From sequence record OR776998: a stretch of 64,000 nt of DNA. One strand, 5' to 3'. Under the pieces are notes generated by a model. The model made no database searches and had not been told where the DNA came from. It saw only the letters and a program-made list of their open reading frames with translations. Positions 17,982 to 37,371 of this stretch are shown here, piece by piece; within the stretch, counting starts at the first letter, position 1, and every line of letters starts with the position of its first letter. Source of the stretch: Escherichia phage YX22. Both the position numbers and the translations under genes were made by a program.

Positions 17982-18363
17982 TGATATGTGCCTCGTATTG
18001 TTGACAGACAACAACTACTTTACGGCACATGTCGATATCGAACAAGCCAATATGACACTCTTTCTTAGTGATGCCCAGCTTATGCGCCAGCCAACTATAA
18101 GCGTCGCTCCTGCTCCTCTCTCCGCTTTTCCACAATGGGTCAAACGATCTATGGGCTTTTTGCTTCTCGGCACGGAGAGCGGCATTCGCCATCCTTCCCA
18201 GAGGCTGCCTGCCGTCGCCATGGGCATGGCAACCGACACGGGCATCACACGGGGTGCAAACCCAGAACCTCAGATTGCGGAGGTCAGGGCGATGAGGGTA
18301 GAGAACATCACCACCGACGAATTCGGCTGGGAGGCCACAGTAATCACATATAACAGGTTTCAT
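17953..18363 (-). CDS. Hypothetical zinc-finger protein
   Basis: Internal ATG at 18363 (MKPVICDYCG...WVCTPCDARVGCHAHG...): two CxxC pairs plus His; 136 aa. Confidence 0.45.
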   Translation of the reverse strand: MKPVICDYCGLPAEFVGGDVLYPHRPDLRNLRFWVCTPCDARVGCHAHGDGRQPLGRMANAALRAEKQKAHRSFDPLWKSGERSRSDAYSWLAHKLGITKKECHIGLFDIDMCRKVVVVCQQYEAHINVKGNTRSV

Positions 18364-18370
18364 ATTCTTT

Positions 18371-18399
18371 GTCCAAAAGAAACCCCGCACATGGCGGGG
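18371..18399 (-). terminator. Rho-independent terminator
   Basis: Stem CCCCGC/GCGGGG with 5-nt loop; T-run on the minus strand downstream (TTTCTTTTGG). Confidence 0.55.
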
Positions 18400-18423
18400 T
18401 TGCTCAGGCCGAGGCCAACAGGG

Positions 18424-18795
18424 TTATTTCAGCAGCGCTTCCAGTTCTTCAACAGATTTGCTTTCCAGCTCTTGCTGTTTCTTACGCTGGATCAGCTCCA
18501 GGATAATCTGGTTGTTCGCCTTACGCTCTGCCGCTTCTCTGCTGTCGTCACGTTCTTTCAGCTTAACGCCGATGATGTGCTTGACAACGTCGAAGCGCAG
18601 CTGCAGTTCGGAGTCAACGTTGCTTTTGGTGCCAATGAAATCTTCTTCATCGGTTTCTGCTGCTTTCACCTGACGGCTCAGACCTTTCGCCATTTCGTTC
18701 AGGGCAGTCAGGCTCAGGTCCCAGACCTGCTCAACAGACAGCAGACCTTTGTTAGACTCGAAGCGCAGTTTCAGACGGGTTGCTTTATCAAACAT
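18424..18795 (-). CDS. Hypothetical protein
   Basis: 123 aa, ATG start, charged helical composition. Confidence 0.45.
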   Translation of the reverse strand: MFDKATRLKLRFESNKGLLSVEQVWDLSLTALNEMAKGLSRQVKAAETDEEDFIGTKSNVDSELQLRFDVVKHIIGVKLKERDDSREAAERKANNQIILELIQRKKQQELESKSVEELEALLK

Positions 18796-18839
18796 TTTAC
18801 TATCCTCAATGATGAATGGGTCACAATTTCAAATCAGGT

Positions 18840-20858
18840 TTAGAACACAACTTTCACAGTGCGGTTGAACGAACCGCTCACCTTCACGAACACGTGGTTG
18901 CGTTGGGTGGTAGAGAATCCCAGACCGGACAGCTGCTCAGTGCTTGGCTGTACTTTAATCTTACCACCTAACATTTCAAAAACCTTGCGGTGTTTATCAA
19001 GTTCCGGCTTCAGATATTCGTTATAGAAACCACGGGTGCCGACAGGGTTAGCACAACCTTCCAGGATGAAGAACACGTGCTTGTTGCCAGTCTGCTCGCC
19101 GTCCCAATGGTTTGGTGAGTTCAGAACCAGCTGTACCTTCTGGAAGACGGAGGTCTTGATGCCCCAGATTTCCTGAGAGCGAGCGTCGTCTTTCAGGGTA
19201 GAACGGATGTCTACCACTTGTCCAGCGCGGACATCAATCACAACAGCCAGAGTGCGATCTTTGTGCTTCAGGCCAGGATGCGAAAAACGCTTGGTCTGGC
19301 CTTTGTATTCAACTTCGATTTCGAAACCAACGTCACAGGTTTCACGCTTGTTGAAGTTAGTGACATAGAACTCGTACAGACCATCACGCAGCTTGCGTTC
19401 ATCGCTGAAGAAGATGTTCTCCACCGGGCGGCGGTTGGGATCAATGCCGTCCATACCGTTCATGTCGATATCCAGGGTTGCGCCAGTTGCCGAACGACGG
19501 TTGTGATAATACACGTGGTTGTGAAGAGGATCGTTCAGGCTCAGATCCAGATCGTCGTTGTTATGCCAAGCCAGTGACACACGGAGGAAGCTGTCGACAT
19601 TGCCGCCTGCGGTCTTCACGCGCTCTTTGATGGAGTCGGCCACTTCGCCATTGTACGACCAGCTGAAGCCGTTGTTCCACTTGAACAGGTTAGGAGCGCC
19701 TGCGGTGGCCGGAGCGATCAGGGACATCAGGTTGCCAATGTGAGAGTTTTCGACCAGCACTTCCAGGGAATGCGCCTTTGGCAACACGTTGGTCAGGAAG
19801 TCGTCGATCGTGATCTCTTCAACCTTGTCCAGGGACTTGGTCGGAGTCTTCACTTCAGACGCCAGCTGAGCAAACGGGTCCATCTTCTTCTGAGCTGCTA
19901 GGTCGGCGAACAGAACGTTGTTGATGGTCAGATCGTCATACACGGCATAACGGCGACCCAGTGAATCAGTCAGACCCAGCGCTTCGACTTCTTTCTGCGC
20001 GTTTTCAATCATCGACTTCGTGACCAGCGCGGTTGGGCGCTTGTAGTTCGTCGGAGCGACTTTGGCTTCAAAGGACTTCACGGCGGTTTCCAGATCCCGA
20101 CCTTCATTGAGGTCTACCAGCAGAGAGCCAATCACGGTATTACGAATGCCGTGAGGGGTATGACCGTTTGCACGGTAGCCAGTGCGCCAAGCCCACAGAG
20201 CGCGTTTCTCTTCTGCAGTTTGTTCGTACAGGGTCTTGTTCACCACGAACGCCTGCACTGCCGCTTTGTGCTCTTCACCGCGATACAGAGAATTCTGGTC
20301 AATCAATTCCAGAACGATTTCAGCCGATTCCAGAGACAGTTCACGCAGGCCGCGCTCAAACACTTCAATCGCCTGGCGGATTTCACCCTTCTTAGAAGCG
20401 ATGGTATCTGCCCGCAGAACATAGCTGCTCAGCAGGTCGGTGTGGAAGTGGTTGTAGGTGCGGACAATACCGTCTTTCATTTCGTGATTCGACCCAACAC
20501 CAACTTTCTTGGTGTCGTTGAAGTACACATCGACGATTGCGTGCTGCTTAACATATGCTGACAGCGCCGCAGCGACAACGTCGTATTCGTTACCCAGCTG
20601 AATGTTATCCCAGATAGAGATCACGTTCAGGTCGGAGTCGATGGTGACCACACCGCCGATATTACGGATGAATTGTTTACAGCAGGTACAGTCGTGCTCG
20701 GTACGCTCACGATAAAGCGGGTTAGTGCCAGCAGGGAAAGAAGACAGATACAGATCCCACAGAGCATCTTTATCGATGTTGGTCATGAACAGACCAGTTG
20801 CTGACATGGCCAGCACATTGTTGTTAACAGCTACTGCGAAGGGCTTAAATTCTGACAT
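18840..20858 (-). CDS. Hypothetical large protein (672 aa), function unassigned
   Basis: Long minus-strand ORF with ATG start and protein-like composition; the matching plus-strand ORFs look like antisense artefacts. No motif assigned with confidence. Confidence 0.6.
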   Translation of the reverse strand: MSEFKPFAVAVNNNVLAMSATGLFMTNIDKDALWDLYLSSFPAGTNPLYRERTEHDCTCCKQFIRNIGGVVTIDSDLNVISIWDNIQLGNEYDVVAAALSAYVKQHAIVDVYFNDTKKVGVGSNHEMKDGIVRTYNHFHTDLLSSYVLRADTIASKKGEIRQAIEVFERGLRELSLESAEIVLELIDQNSLYRGEEHKAAVQAFVVNKTLYEQTAEEKRALWAWRTGYRANGHTPHGIRNTVIGSLLVDLNEGRDLETAVKSFEAKVAPTNYKRPTALVTKSMIENAQKEVEALGLTDSLGRRYAVYDDLTINNVLFADLAAQKKMDPFAQLASEVKTPTKSLDKVEEITIDDFLTNVLPKAHSLEVLVENSHIGNLMSLIAPATAGAPNLFKWNNGFSWSYNGEVADSIKERVKTAGGNVDSFLRVSLAWHNNDDLDLSLNDPLHNHVYYHNRRSATGATLDIDMNGMDGIDPNRRPVENIFFSDERKLRDGLYEFYVTNFNKRETCDVGFEIEVEYKGQTKRFSHPGLKHKDRTLAVVIDVRAGQVVDIRSTLKDDARSQEIWGIKTSVFQKVQLVLNSPNHWDGEQTGNKHVFFILEGCANPVGTRGFYNEYLKPELDKHRKVFEMLGGKIKVQPSTEQLSGLGFSTTQRNHVFVKVSGSFNRTVKVVF

Positions 20859-32923: not shown

Positions 32924-33076
32924 GGTAAAGTCCTCTATTTGTAGGGGATAGGGTATGCGGTTAACATACCCTGTTCAAAGGTTTAGAACAAATTGCTGCA
33001 ATGTTACTTTGTAACGAGATTGGTGATAGTCCCTTCATTTCAGAGTCAGTGTTGTGCTGCTTATGGAATGAAGTAT

Positions 33077-33105
33077 ACGGGGTTTATTGAAGAATTAAAC
33101 CCCGT
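33077..33105. other. Perfect 10-bp stem hairpin (ACGGGGTTTA/TAAACCCCGT, 9-nt loop)
   Basis: Read directly; followed on the plus strand by an AT-rich tract; intergenic between 32579-32923 and 33126-33362. Confidence 0.5.
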
Positions 33106-33125
33106 TTATTGAATAAATTTAAAAT

Positions 33126-34056: not shown

Positions 34057-34080
34057 GGTACAACCCTCGGATAGTAGACG

Positions 34081-34113
34081 GGGCAATAATACCTCTCACC
34101 CCGTTATTGAAAA
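34081..34113 (-). promoter_or_regulatory. Repeated promoter-like element (copy 1)
   Basis: Minus strand TTCAATAACGGGGTGAGAGGTATTATTGCC; second copy at 34345-34383; each sits just upstream of a small-gene start. Confidence 0.4.
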
Positions 34114-34116
34114 CTG

Positions 34117-34317
34117 TTATCCTTCTTGTTCTTCCCAACCCCATTCATCTTCCCAAGACTGGCGAGGTGTCTTGCCCGCTTCGTAGTCATCACGCCAGGC
34201 GTCGGCGTCGGCGGCTGAACCACCCTGGCTTTTCGCGACTTTACATAATACGTCGTGCCACTCACGGAAGGTGGAGTTGGCGACTGTGGTGTTTACAGAA
34301 TCTTCTTTCAGGCTCAT
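34117..34317 (-). CDS. Hypothetical acidic, W-rich small protein
   Basis: 66 aa, ATG start. Confidence 0.4.
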   Translation of the reverse strand: MSLKEDSVNTTVANSTFREWHDVLCKVAKSQGGSAADADAWRDDYEAGKTPRQSWEDEWGWEEQEG

Positions 34318-34344
34318 TGCGATTTCCTCGATTAATAGAGAGGG

Positions 34345-34383
34345 TAATGATACCTTTCGCCCCGTTATTGAAATGTTCTTTTA
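34345..34383 (-). promoter_or_regulatory. Repeated promoter-like element (copy 2)
   Basis: Minus strand TTCAATAACGGGGCGAAAGGTATCATTACC, about 45 nt upstream of the ATG at 34317. Confidence 0.4.
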
Positions 34384-35853
34384 GTTCAAGACATATTTGA
34401 TCAGTCCACAATTCCAAATCCTGACCAACCCGGCTTCGGTTGCTAATTGGCTTTCTGTTTTGCCTTCTACGTCATACCCCATGCGAGCAAATGAACCTTT
34501 TCTGAAACCGAATTTGTGCTCACGCATAAATGTGCCAGGCTTGTGATATTTGTAGTCTGGCTTCTGTACTTCCTCTTCTACGAATCCGTGGGATAGGTAA
34601 ATGTTGGACAACCTGCTTACAACACACCTATCCCCAAAGGAATAGATTTTGGTGCCGGTAAATTTTCTTCTGAAGTGTGAAAGAAGTTTACTGAATGCCC
34701 CGTGGCAATCATTAGAGGCAAATCTGACTAATTCCAGGCCATCTTTCCTTTTAGTGAATAGCATCACGGCTTGTATGGCCCCACTCTTGTCAATTAACGA
34801 CAAATGGTGGGTGGAAGAAACGGAACCTTGTATGTGGTGGTTGTCTAAAAACTCCCTCAAGCCGCTTATATTTCCCCAAACGACTTTGTGTTGGCGAGCA
34901 TATGACGCAGGCGTTTTAATTCCAAGTTTAGCTTTCAGAAGAGATTTTACCACTTCCTGTTTCTCAACCCATTCATCTTCCCAGATGTGGATCAACTGGA
35001 TACCCTGAGTTTCACATATTTCAGTCTTTTCCAGGTGATAATGTTTCTCTTTAAAAACTTCTGAATGCCAGTACAGGCCATTAAATTCAATCGCCAATTT
35101 GTGTTCAGGGCAATAGATATCCAGTTGTTTACCGGATAATATACTGTAATCAGAAACAGTGTTTACAACTCCCATTGATGTGAGAAACTCGGATATTTCC
35201 TTTTCATAAGAAGATTTCTTGTTCCTGATAGAACCATTGCTGAACAACGCACGTTTTAGTATGTTCGAATTTTTCATAGGGTTGTCAACACCATAACGTT
35301 CTTGTAACGTTGCCAACGCCTTCTCCCTCACACCAGGTAATTGTAGTGTGGAGCAGCTTCCGTATTTGGATATATTCGAAGTCTCTATGGCTTTCCGACC
35401 AATCCCACCTTTACACATAGAAACCTGATAACATTCTTCAGAACAATATGTTCTGTAATCTTTATTATTGATGTAAAAGTTGGTTTCCTTGGAACACACC
35501 GGGCATATTTTCACGGTTCTATTGTACAGCCAAGCTGTGACTTTACAAGCCAAATCTTGTAGGGTGTTGTGGGTATTGGCGAACACTAAAAGGTCTACAT
35601 TGATGTGCTTCATAAGCAGTTCAGATTTGCATTTTTGGATATCCAATTTGTTGTTCTTGGTAAACATATATTTGTAGAAAAATTGGCGATATGATTCCTC
35701 GTCAGACAATTCATTCACTGCTTCAAGGAAACCTTCCGGGAGGTTCTTTAGGGTGTTCGATGCGAAGGTCTTGCAAGCATCTGAACAAAATTTCTTATCT
35801 TTCCTGGATGCTTTGAACTGTTCATGGCAGACACTACAGATTACCTGATACAT
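34381..35853 (-). CDS. Putative homing endonuclease with Vsr-like PD-(D/E)XK domain and N-terminal zinc fingers
   Basis: ATG at 35853 with SD GGAGGAG; N-terminal CxxC...CxxC pairs (CSVCHEQ...CSDACK; CPVCSKE...CSEECY); central DIYCPEHKLAIEFNGLYWHSE resembles the Vsr/DUF559 motif (FVDGCFWH); inserted just downstream of gp23. Confidence 0.55.
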   Translation of the reverse strand: MYQVICSVCHEQFKASRKDKKFCSDACKTFASNTLKNLPEGFLEAVNELSDEESYRQFFYKYMFTKNNKLDIQKCKSELLMKHINVDLLVFANTHNTLQDLACKVTAWLYNRTVKICPVCSKETNFYINNKDYRTYCSEECYQVSMCKGGIGRKAIETSNISKYGSCSTLQLPGVREKALATLQERYGVDNPMKNSNILKRALFSNGSIRNKKSSYEKEISEFLTSMGVVNTVSDYSILSGKQLDIYCPEHKLAIEFNGLYWHSEVFKEKHYHLEKTEICETQGIQLIHIWEDEWVEKQEVVKSLLKAKLGIKTPASYARQHKVVWGNISGLREFLDNHHIQGSVSSTHHLSLIDKSGAIQAVMLFTKRKDGLELVRFASNDCHGAFSKLLSHFRRKFTGTKIYSFGDRCVVSRLSNIYLSHGFVEEEVQKPDYKYHKPGTFMREHKFGFRKGSFARMGYDVEGKTESQLATEAGLVRIWNCGLIKYVLN

Positions 35854-35900
35854 AATTATTCTCCTCCATATGGTATCTAGTATAACCTGTTCGATAATAT

Positions 35901-35930
35901 GAACAAATAAAAACCCCGCCGAAGCGGGGT
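35901..35930 (-). terminator. Rho-independent terminator after gp23
   Basis: Minus strand: ACCCCGC-ttcg-GCGGGGT followed by TTTTATTTG. Confidence 0.7.
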
Positions 35931-35957
35931 TTGTCAGGGTTAAGGACAACTATTCGA

Positions 35958-37280
35958 TTAGAAAAGTCCTTTAATTAACCCTTTGCGGAAATACACGTTG
36001 GTGTCCTTGGCGATACCATCCGCAGTCACATAGACCTGTGGATCCTGGTTCGCTGGGATCTGAACGAATGGGTTAGCACAAATCCCGTAGCGGGTCTTGA
36101 ACGCCATACGTGGTGCGAAGGTGGTTTCACCCTGGGTGCGGTACATTTCCAGCGGTACATACGGTGCGAAGAAGATACCAGCATCCAGCGCGGTTGCGCC
36201 TTTGTATGCCAGGGTGATGTATTCTGCTACTGCATACGGGTCGATGTAGACACGCATACCGTTAGACAGCACACCAGCGAAGGTCTGGCCAGTCGGATCA
36301 ATCGCCAGCTTGGTGTTTTCCTGCAGCGCCGGAGCATAATCCAGCATGCCGGACATCGCCAGAGCGGATGCTACGTTCGGGGAGCACAGAACACGGTTGC
36401 CTTTACCACGACGGGTGTCAACACCGATGCCGTTCGCTTCGACTTCCAGCATGAAAGTCATGTACTTCCATTTTTCCAGCGCCCAACGACCGGAGATGTC
36501 AGTGGAGATATCTACGATACCGTTGGTGCCGAATTTTTTGAAGCGTACTGCGCTGAAGTTCATGGTGCGGATAAACTCACGGTTCATCTCTGCCTGAATT
36601 TCAGTTACCATCACGTCGGACAGGATGCTGTCAACGTCTTCGCCGTGGATCGCCATCATGTCCTGGCGCAGTTCGTGGCTGTAGTCAGCGTACAGGCCGC
36701 GAGACTTCGCAGTCACGGTTGCTTTCTGAACGGTGATACCAACACGTGCCCATGGGTTGGTGGTGGTGCCCAGCAGTTCAGCGTCGGAGGTTGACATGCC
36801 TTTACCGATGGTGGTGGTAGCAGCGCCGGAACCTTCGATTTCAGTCTGGGAGAAGCCAGATGGGTCGCCAGCCTGTGCAGTATCGTCACCGGAGTAACCG
36901 GAGTTGGCTTCGTTCATGAACAGCTCAGCGCGGGACTGGGCAGTGTTGGAGCCGTCTGCAACGCCCTGGCGAGCACGCAGTGCGAAGATCTGACCGTCAG
37001 GACCAGACAGCGGCTGAACGCCGAAGAAGTCCATCGCGATGTTGACCGGAGCCAGACGTTTGGCCATGTCGATCAGGACTGGCTGCCATTTGCCCACAGA
37101 GGCGTTCACGGAGCCAGGAGCGTCGGATTCGCCCAGGTTTTTGGCGTTCCACTCAGCCTGGTTTTGCAGCAGACGGACGGCAACGTTTTCGGCAGAAAGC
37201 GGCTGGATGCTTTCAGATTCTTTCTGAAGAACTGGCAGCCACTGCTCGCGCATTTGTTCGGTAACAAGTTTCTTAGCCAT
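35958..37280 (-). CDS. 23: Major capsid protein gp23
   Basis: ATG at 37280 (MAKKLVTEQMREQWLPVL...), 440 aa; position downstream of the scaffold and protease genes as in T4; size and composition fit a T4-type capsid protein. Confidence 0.85.
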   Translation of the reverse strand: MAKKLVTEQMREQWLPVLQKESESIQPLSAENVAVRLLQNQAEWNAKNLGESDAPGSVNASVGKWQPVLIDMAKRLAPVNIAMDFFGVQPLSGPDGQIFALRARQGVADGSNTAQSRAELFMNEANSGYSGDDTAQAGDPSGFSQTEIEGSGAATTTIGKGMSTSDAELLGTTTNPWARVGITVQKATVTAKSRGLYADYSHELRQDMMAIHGEDVDSILSDVMVTEIQAEMNREFIRTMNFSAVRFKKFGTNGIVDISTDISGRWALEKWKYMTFMLEVEANGIGVDTRRGKGNRVLCSPNVASALAMSGMLDYAPALQENTKLAIDPTGQTFAGVLSNGMRVYIDPYAVAEYITLAYKGATALDAGIFFAPYVPLEMYRTQGETTFAPRMAFKTRYGICANPFVQIPANQDPQVYVTADGIAKDTNVYFRKGLIKGLF

Positions 37281-37371
37281 GATGGTCATTCCTTACATTG
37301 ATATTCAGTTAAGTTGAAATTACTTAGTAGTTCAAAATCAAGCCCCCTTTCGAGGGCTGTGGCTGCTAAAA

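Follow-up and report, generated by a model that had tools for sequence, protein, structure and literature searches.

Escherichia phage YX22 (sequence record OR776998) carries an open reading frame (ORF) of 490 codons directly 3' of its major capsid gene gp23, on the same strand and separated from it by an intrinsic terminator. This locus raises the question of what kind of gene sits in this position, whether it is a mobile element, and what the C-terminal part of its product contributes. The gene was analysed within a stretch of 64,000 nucleotides (nt) of the phage genome, hereafter the window. An earlier reading of the window, made from the letters alone (the sequence-only reading), had proposed a Vsr-like endonuclease in a homing hotspot. 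From sequence comparison and structure prediction, it is very probably a free-standing homing endonuclease gene (HEG) that falls, within the EDxHD (Vsr-like) family, in the Hef-like branch. Its ortholog in Dickeya phage vB_DsoM_LIMEstone1 is F-LimVII (ORF137). Neither the gene nor its family assignment is new, given a GenBank label, the published F-LimVII ortholog, and the placement of Hef in the EDxHD family in 2011. The Hef family as a whole has a further property: throughout, the EDxHD nuclease comes joined to a Mom-like GNAT domain in which most of the Mom active site is intact.

The nuclease domain and its relatives

The coordinates in the sequence-only reading were exact, as they enclose the complete 490-codon ORF. 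The reality of this ORF is far beyond chance. It has 1920 database homologs, it matches phrog_3339 ('homing endonuclease') in PHROGs with E=2.7e-156, and its product of 490 amino acids (aa) has a confident AlphaFold2 (AF2) model, with a mean predicted local distance difference test score (pLDDT) of 94.6 and disorder confined to the linker of residues 206-212. The start at the ATG at 35853 is used by all annotated orthologs. A 522-aa version that starts from a TTG at 35949, taken from the automatic ORF list, was rejected because its extension crosses the gp23 terminator.

Residues 213-312 form a Vsr-like nuclease domain. As a single sequence, the protein matched the Pfam families MTES_1575 (E=2e-5), DUF559 (E=1e-3), and Vsr (E=2e-3); all of these matches were below the cut-offs, and all belong to the Vsr-like clan. 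The sole sequence match in the PDB was the catalytic domain of I-Bth0305I (3r3p; E=0.0024 for the single sequence), and a profile of 120 homologs matched 3r3p with E=2.4e-7. E217, D245, N258, H263, and D293 correspond to I-Bth0305I E170, D196, N208, H213, and D222, respectively (residue set from PMC3239194). In the HMMER alignment, D245 and H263 pair with 3r3p positions 196 and 213, where the crystallised D196A/H213A mutant has alanine. Among the 120 homologs, D245, H263, and D293 are conserved in all, E217 in 113, and N258 in 105 (with D in 12); E256, H273, and K276 are likewise invariant. The motif AIEFNGLYWHSE occupies residues 254-265. The Vsr/DUF559-like catalytic core that had been proposed from the letters alone is borne out by the clan matches, by the I-Bth0305I profile match, and by the full E-D-x-H-D set. 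Profile searches for the Vsr, DUF559, and I-Bth0305I families assigned to this domain a Vsr-like nuclease fold, the fold of the Hef-like/EDxHD class, and no non-nuclease fold.

A Vsr-like fold also brings to mind a very-short-patch mismatch repair nickase, which would serve in the repair of phage DNA. E. coli Vsr (PDB 1VSR/1CW0) is a single-domain mismatch-specific nickase with a structural zinc site. The YX22 protein scores far under the Vsr family cut-offs (PF03852, 18.3 vs 27 bits; TIGR00632, 19.5 vs 97.85 bits), and the zinc-site cysteines are absent (HGCFWHHHHC in Vsr, NGLYWHSEVF in the protein). N258 stands in place of Vsr H64, as in I-Bth0305I (PMC3239194). The multi-domain architecture and the sporadic distribution of the gene do not fit such a nickase either, and a role in Vsr-type repair is extremely improbable.

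The reading as a homing endonuclease is supported by the nearest characterized families. Taylor et al. (2011) placed the 'bacteriophage Hef type homing endonucleases' in the Vsr-like EDxHD family (PMC3239194). By BLASTP, Hef of the T-even phage U5 (GenBank AY262133) is 36% identical to the protein over residues 201-487 (301 columns; E=4e-38), a span that covers the nuclease and the C-terminal domain. In the 2005 work of Sandegren et al. (Sandegren, Nord, and Sjoberg), U5 Hef reportedly showed homing-type inheritance in mixed infections. To our knowledge, experimental study of the Hef/EDxHD family is limited to U5 Hef and I-Bth0305I. Hef, a free-standing endonuclease, is reported to cleave nrdB, near its own locus (PMC2988022). 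U5 Hef resembles the YX22 protein in the nuclease and Mom-like core and in an N-terminal CxxC...CSxxC finger. Unlike the YX22 gene, hef lies between nrdA and nrdB of a Tequatrovirus, and the N-terminal 250 residues of U5 Hef are unrelated to those of the YX22 protein (5-32% identity), which suggests a different target.

I-Bth0305I (PDB 3R3P), the EDxHD prototype, is encoded in a recA group I intron and has 266 aa with a C-terminal nuclease (Taylor et al., 2011; PMC3239194). It differs from the YX22 protein in having N-terminal NUMOD/helix-turn-helix (HTH) modules rather than zinc fingers and in having no Mom-like domain. No NUMOD/HTH matches were obtained in the Pfam scan of the YX22 protein, in which the nuclease is internal and is followed by the GNAT domain. 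NUMOD/HTH modules with a C-terminal nuclease are the defining layout of the intron-encoded enzymes and do not characterize the Hef subgroup.

F-LimVII was named by Adriaenssens et al. (2012) and classed by BLAST as a 'Hef-like' free-standing homing endonuclease (PMC3296691). It is 86.9% identical in aa sequence to the YX22 protein over all 490 residues. The two genes are alike in position, in orientation (directly behind the gp23 terminator, which is annotated as a terminator in LIMEstone1 too), and in start context. They differ in the genus of the phage (Limestonevirus vs an Agtrevirus-like phage) and in the downstream flank. The nuclease fold and the C-terminal domain are not described in the F-LimVII publication (PMC3296691).

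Among orthologs, the ratio of nonsynonymous to synonymous substitution rates (dN/dS) was ~0.09 overall, 0.05-0.08 in the nuclease, and 0.09-0.26 in the N-terminal part; the ratio for gp23 was 0.05-0.18. Judged by these ratios, the HEG is a functional gene that is kept by purifying selection. In the comparison of the window with LIMEstone1 (L002), the synonymous rate (dS) was 0.87 for the HEG and 0.33 for gp23, a 2.6-fold difference, and dN/dS was ~0.1 in both. One explanation is that recombination or codon bias has homogenised gp23; the other is that the HEG lineages predate the genes now beside them.

The labels of the orthologs vary. The genes of the E. coli phages LHE287, RPN242, AV101, and ZQ1 encode proteins with 98.4-99.4% aa identity to that of YX22; two are labelled '(putative) homing endonuclease' and two 'hypothetical protein'. 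Other GenBank labels in the family are 'putative nuclease/acetyltransferase protein' and 'homing endonuclease EDxHD'. PADLOC gave a weak 'HEase' match only. The label 'HNH endonuclease', which comes with the second-best PHROG (phrog_559) and with the ChubbyThor ortholog (L010:1808-3280, 'putative HNH endonuclease'), is a misannotation. The protein has no HNH motif, no HNH family appeared in the Pfam scan even at E<=10, and the nuclease fold is Vsr-like instead.

The slot behind gp23 and a candidate target site

The region around the gene is matched by 286 phage records, all of the Ackermannviridae type, whose hosts are Salmonella, Klebsiella, Escherichia, Dickeya, and related bacteria. The best nucleotide matches were the E. 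coli phages RPN242, ZQ1, LHE287, and AV101 (97-98.5% identity), and Ag3 and ChubbyThor, both close relatives, are placed in Aglimvirinae/Agtrevirus. YX22 belongs to the Ackermannviridae (Agtrevirus-like, 'ViI-like') and not to the T4-like phages (Straboviridae). The T4-like context assumed in the sequence-only reading does not hold, as only the head-gene order is T4-related.

The gene is carried, with at least 80% of the region covered, by 23 of the 286 records. Window positions 34355-35908 were compared with L001:2043-2765, L003:2071-3936, L004:2071-3597, L005:2484-3335, and L170-L172. In Ag3, the place of the HEG cassette is taken by 723 base pairs with two small ORFs, as defined by blastn breakpoints and junction alignments. 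The homology between the window and Ag3 ends right past the T-run of the gp23 terminator (~35908) and restarts at 34354, ~35 nt 5' of the ATG of the next gene. Two small ORFs are also found in the slot of the HEG-less phages MK-13, P46FS4, and Gloob, and one is annotated in PhiSH19. A different Hef-like gene occupies the same slot in PC3 (621 aa) and fGh-Ecl02 (508 aa), and SW16-7 has a SegE-like GIY-YIG endonuclease gene there (phrog_314, E=1.9e-31; Pfam SegE_GIY-YIG, E=5.5e-5). Among the more distant Ackermannviridae, three phages have a Hef-like gene, 32-37% identical, at the gp23 3' end: it is oriented as in YX22 in Vibrio phage YC, and oppositely in Aeromonas phage phiA8-29 and Vibrio phage Kuja. 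The gene is thus present sporadically, in an intergenic slot beside a conserved essential gene. This distribution, the empty or otherwise filled slots, and the sharp breakpoints give good support to the gp23-adjacent homing hotspot that had been suggested beforehand, and the comparison of the gp23 3' flank found the gene absent from most relatives, with flanking polymorphism.

Several further observations concern the slot. The position behind the terminator is a multi-occupancy hotspot, in which Tedavirus and Kujavirus hold oppositely oriented Hef-like HEGs. Compared with the YX22 gene, the allele of PC3 and fGh-Ecl02 has a mosaic structure: the last 87 residues (34384-34641) are 91% identical in aa sequence (87-89% in nt sequence, ~260 nt), and identity elsewhere falls to 68% for the nuclease and to 10-42% for the N-terminus. 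The mosaic implies a recombination breakpoint within the Mom-like domain and an exchange of domains among the HEG alleles of a single locus. In ChubbyThor (L010) and CECAV_050 (L011), judged by the annotations only, the gene next after the HEG in the window (66 aa, phrog_519, 34117-34317) has no annotated counterpart, so the downstream edge of the HEG-associated replacement apparently differs among HEG-positive phages.

A gp23 alignment of 7-8 HEG-positive and 23-25 HEG-less Ackermannviridae was built from GenBank and IMG/VR loci (1332 nt, 478 variable columns). HEG-positive and HEG-less sequences were perfectly separated at only two of the 478 variable columns, nt 1194 (G vs A) and nt 1200 (C vs T). 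In the window, these are positions 36096 (G in HEG-positive, A in HEG-less phages) and 36090 (C and T, respectively). Both changes are synonymous and fall on the third codon position (AAA to AAG and CGT to CGC). They lie in the codons for A-F-K-T-R-Y-G, which read TTCAAAACyCGTTACGG in HEG-less and TTCAAGACmCGCTACGG in HEG-positive phages. The changes are ~138 nt away from the stop of gp23, on its 5' side, and the edge of the cassette is at a distance of ~190 nt. All five gp23 columns with an association of at least 0.9 are within nt 1194-1260. The 3' 150 nt of gp23 group by HEG status, with an identity of 0.900 within HEG-positive phages vs 0.842 between the groups, whereas the 5' third does not (0.900 vs 0.915). 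Clustering by HEG status at the 3' end but not in the 5' third is the pattern predicted by co-conversion. Within the associated block, the perfectly associated positions are the farthest from the HEG, which accords better with a site of cleavage or immunity at the distal end of the co-conversion tract than with simple linkage. The distant HEG-positive phages YC and phiA8-29 have AAG...CGC as well.

The AFKTRYG segment is conserved across the whole T4-like gp23 family. Homing endonucleases tend to target functionally critical, conserved sequence (PMC2988022), and the conservation of AFKTRYG fits this habit. Our best guess for the cut site in HEG-less relatives is a candidate site in the AFKTRYG codons of gp23, near TTCAAAACCCGTTACGG. 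The two silent HEG-associated changes offer a cheap and directly testable target prediction. An IUPAC scan of IMG/VR for the HEG-positive allele was useless as a test of the association with the HEG, as it returned ~115 gp23 homologs with 33-65% identity, mostly other T4-like gp23 genes; what it did reveal is the family-wide conservation of AFKTRYG.

The gene could alternatively be a domesticated or inactive relic of a homing endonuclease, whose product has lost the ability to cut DNA. It would persist either as neutral baggage or because it regulates by binding DNA, like CapR, which is derived from T5orf172 HEGs. The position of the gene behind a strong terminator and the Pfam nuclease matches, all under the gathering scores, would suit a relic. 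Against it, the catalytic residues are all intact and invariant, dN/dS is 0.05-0.08 in the nuclease domain, and different genera retain the gene at full length with 87-99% identity. Recent mobility is also indicated by its patchy presence and by the clustering of the gp23 3' haplotype. A relic is very unlikely on this evidence.

The Mom-like domain and the modular N-terminus

The C-terminal domain is a Mom-like GNAT domain, an assignment that comes from profile comparison. The sequence-only reading had left it as a domain of unknown function. This agrees with the single-sequence scans: the C-terminal 174 aa had no family match in Pfam and NCBIfam, and PF25680 ('Mom protein family') was matched in the Pfam scan neither by the full protein nor by the isolated C-terminal 174 aa. 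It no longer applies once profiles are used. When the 120-member family was aligned with 51 Mom homologs, residues 319-448 matched Mom 37-185 with 93.5% probability (E=2.4e-7). The match to the lone Mu Mom sequence in hhalign was weak (16.5%, E=0.0015), and the alignment is convincing only with the 51-sequence Mom alignment. PF25680 was found at E<=0.01 in 18 of 76 family members (best 4.8e-9), with no other GNAT family matched, and the relatives P0040, P0060, and P0082 exceed its gathering score (27.1 bits), if barely. In a viral structure library, the stand-alone matches to the domain, which has a GNAT fold, include 'Mom [Salmonella phage FSL SP-031]' (E=1.3e-8). Searched on its own, the domain retrieves U5 hef in tblastn (E=4e-5), as well as 6464 cluster representatives at E<=1e-3. 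Among the best 150 of these 6464 representatives, the Mom-like domain is almost always C-terminal, in proteins of 400-870 aa.

Mom residues were mapped onto the protein through the profile-profile alignment with the 51 Mom homologs, and conservation was counted over the 120 homologs. The mapped residues are those shown or proposed to be necessary for momylation (PMC13219725, PMC7261163), a list that comprises H58, Y59, R111, S124, D149, R151, and Y159 (PMC13219725). Mom H58, R111, and Y159 correspond to H340, R377, and Y419, each kept in 120/120 homologs. Mom D149 corresponds to D408 (118/120), Mom E108 to E374 (112/120), and Mom S124 to S388 (95/120). The essential Mom R151 falls on C410, a position with R in 61, C in 33, and S in 16 of the 120 homologs. 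Mom Y59 is replaced by I341, and the Mom dimer contact W48 is not conserved. Positions 410 and 414 covary (codons 34612-34626): C410 occurs with R414 in 33/33 homologs and R410 with G414 in 59/61. The arginine equivalent to Mom R151 may thus have been relocated to 414 and not lost. The dN/dS of the Mom-like domain among orthologs is 0.06-0.09, which means that the domain is strongly constrained.

Mu Mom (PDB 8BV8) is a stand-alone, Com-regulated enzyme of 241 aa that transfers glycine from Gly-tRNA to adenine N6 (PMC7261163, PMC13219725). In the YX22 protein, by comparison, the domain is fused behind a nuclease, R151 is changed to C410 with R414 possibly substituting, and W48 is not kept. The accessible homing-endonuclease papers make no mention of a nuclease-Mom fusion, and the accessible Mom papers refer neither to Vsr nor to homing or fusions. 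The chemistry of Mom, a Gly-tRNA-dependent modification of adenine, was solved only in 2026.

The N-terminal part contains two cysteine clusters of the pattern CxxC...(F/Y)CSxxC, which is a YacG/FCS-like treble-clef pattern. The two zinc-binding pairs described in the sequence-only reading are both real; the spacing is CxxC...CxxxC rather than CxxC...CxxC, with C6/C9 paired to C23/C27 and C117/C120 to C137/C141. Zinc finger 1 is modelled by AF2 as a beta-hairpin followed by a helix (pLDDT >94) and is found in 34/120 homologs. Zinc finger 2 matches YacG weakly (Pfam E=0.0039, NCBIfam E=0.0017), and it is conserved in about 100-110/120 homologs, with a range of 90-110/120 for its cysteines. Residues 31-112, between the fingers, had no Pfam match. 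Residues 153-205 match PF24308 (DUF7487) with E=4.9e-5, under the family cut-off; strong matches to it are found in 53/76 relatives.

Across homologs, with the U5 prototype Hef among them, the constant part is the last ~57% of the protein, namely the nuclease and the Mom-like domain. The N-termini differ and include DUF7487 repeats, DUF723, DUF4379 treble clefs, ROS/MucR, and others. This layout is the usual modular plan of phage homing endonucleases. A variable N-terminus on a constant core suggests that the N-terminal part sets target specificity and that the nuclease and the Mom-like domain form one catalytic unit. The N-terminal fingers and repeats of the YX22 protein are presumably its target-recognition part.

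The most likely role of the Mom-like domain is that of a DNA-handling partner of the nuclease, which would bind the duplex or flip bases and might also position or dimerise the nuclease so that it cuts both strands. A catalytically active domain is a doubtful but tangible possibility, in which the Hef family would be a site-specific nuclease joined to a DNA adenine acyl- or aminoacyl-transferase. This possibility draws on the (near-)invariant H340, R377, D408, and Y419, the mostly kept S388, the arginine at 410 or 414, and the low dN/dS. If it is true, Hef-family enzymes are mobile nucleases with two functions, of a type not seen before, and the chemistry of Mom has a second use in nature. A homing endonuclease would then chemically mark DNA, either protecting the HEG-positive allele or preparing the target by base flipping or modification, and Hef-like HEGs would be single-chain, mobile restriction-modification-like elements.

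An active domain also leads to a different explanation of the gene, namely a single-polypeptide restriction-modification-like weapon. Its Mom-like domain would momylate or otherwise acylate the phage's own adenines, its nuclease would degrade unmodified DNA from the host or from rival phages, and mobility would be secondary. A reading of this kind was proposed by Iyer, Anantharaman, Krishnan, Burroughs, and Aravind (2021) for the Mom-restriction endonuclease (REase) fusions of jumbo phages, which, according to the accessible part of that paper, have the same two-domain core, an REase-fold nuclease and a Mom domain; that part of the paper draws no link to Hef or EDxHD (PMC7824862). Homologs of the YX22 protein occur in the jumbo phages RaK2, Muenster, PA5oct, and Lak phages. 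The shared architecture, the kept Mom residues, the strict covariation of 410 with 414, and the low dN/dS of the domain all speak for this explanation. On the other side, the prototype Hef behaves like a homing enzyme, in that it is site-specific and its cut lies close to its own gene (PMC2988022). The exchange of N-terminal DNA-binding modules on a constant core is a hallmark of homing, the insertions adjoin conserved essential genes, and many paralogs occur per genome (4 in LIMEstone1, 11-12 in Campylobacter phages). The two silent gp23 changes suggest an immunity that is based on sequence. The equivalents of Mom S124 and R151 are not universal, as S388 is lost in 25/120 homologs and position 410 is R in only 61/120. 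We know of no adenine modification in Ackermannviridae, which also counts against a weapon of this type. Overall, the restriction-modification-like explanation is unlikely, though less so than a relic.

As a homing endonuclease, the gene would act as follows. It would probably be expressed at a low level, by read-through from gp23 or from a weak signal of its own behind the terminator. The N-terminal fingers and repeats would bind a long, degenerate target in HEG-less relatives, and the Vsr-like domain would hydrolyse DNA through D245, H263, and D293, with E217 and N258. During co-infection, HEG-less genomes would be cut in or near the gp23 3' end, and repair from the HEG-positive genome would copy the cassette together with the intervening gp23 3' markers (co-conversion). 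HEG-positive genomes would be spared through the two silent substitutions, AAA to AAG and CGT to CGC.

Several points weigh against this account. The name F-LimVII rests on BLAST similarity only (PMC3296691). Purifying selection that matches that on gp23 in strength exceeds the expectation for a purely selfish, decaying HEG. A role of the Mom-like domain as a DNA-binding accessory leaves the invariant Mom H, R, D, and Y (118-120/120) unexplained. At the candidate target site, Kuja has AAA/CGT, in a site that is otherwise diverged (including Y to R), and PC3 has A/C at the diagnostic positions; neither phage gives a clean fit. The call of the target site is correlational; the HEG-positive lineages are few (~5 independent), and linkage alone could give the pattern.

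Features of the locus and the window

The features of the locus are listed in Table 1.

Table 1. Features of the gp23-HEG locus, with positions in the window and residue numbers of the 490-aa protein.
Feature	Position	Strand	Remarks
Candidate target or immunity site, gp23 codons A-F-K-T-R-Y-G	36080..36105	minus	association only
Major capsid gene gp23	35958..37289	minus	neighbour, presumed target gene
gp23 intrinsic terminator AAACCCCGCTTCGGCGGGGTTT + T-run	35903..35932 (35911-35932 without T-run)	minus	upstream edge of variable cassette
HEG cassette	34355..35908		stretch without counterpart in HEG-less Ag3
Shine-Dalgarno GGAGGAG	35861..35867	minus	7 nt 5' of ATG at 35853; kept in HEG-positive relatives (alignment)
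Coding sequence of the Hef-like (F-LimVII-type) free-standing homing endonuclease (very probable)	34381..35853	minus	490 aa + TAA stop, MYQVICSVCH...KYVLN
Zinc finger 1, residues 1-30	35764..35853	minus	C6, C9, C23, C27; CxxC...FCSxxC, treble-clef/YacG-FCS type
Helical region between fingers, residues 31-112	35518..35763	minus	AF2 helices 25-109
Zinc finger 2, residues 113-146	35416..35517	minus	C117, C120, C137, C141; weak YacG match
DUF7487-type helical 'x-Y-G' repeats, residues 147-205	35239..35415	minus	presumed DNA-binding module
Vsr-like / EDxHD nuclease domain, residues 213-312	34918..35217	minus	catalytic candidates E217, D245, (E256), N258, H263, D293
Mom-like GNAT-fold domain, residues 318-490	34384..34902	minus	Mom active-site residues largely matched

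In a scan for sigma-70-like promoters, 5 were found in 34200-36100 vs 4.0 expected from shuffled sequence, and none between the gp23 terminator and the ATG was convincing; phage late promoters were not scanned for. Neither a second copy (paralog) of the HEG nor a tRNA was found within the window.

Two plus-strand ORFs amid minus-strand genes, 17986-18843 (285 aa) and 1503-2657 (384 aa), have no PHROG match. The latter is probably spurious, as it overlaps an SbcD-like gene on the opposite strand (1509-2621, phrog_100).

A 48-nt direct repeat (81% identical; ...CCCCGTTATTGAAA, plus strand) is present at 34065-34112 and 34326-34373. The copies lie just 5' of two consecutive small minus-strand genes (starts 34086 and 34317), and a related 22-nt tandem pair is found at 33070-33113. 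The repeat probably serves the small-gene cluster as a recurring promoter or regulatory element, and the HEG cassette has its downstream edge there.

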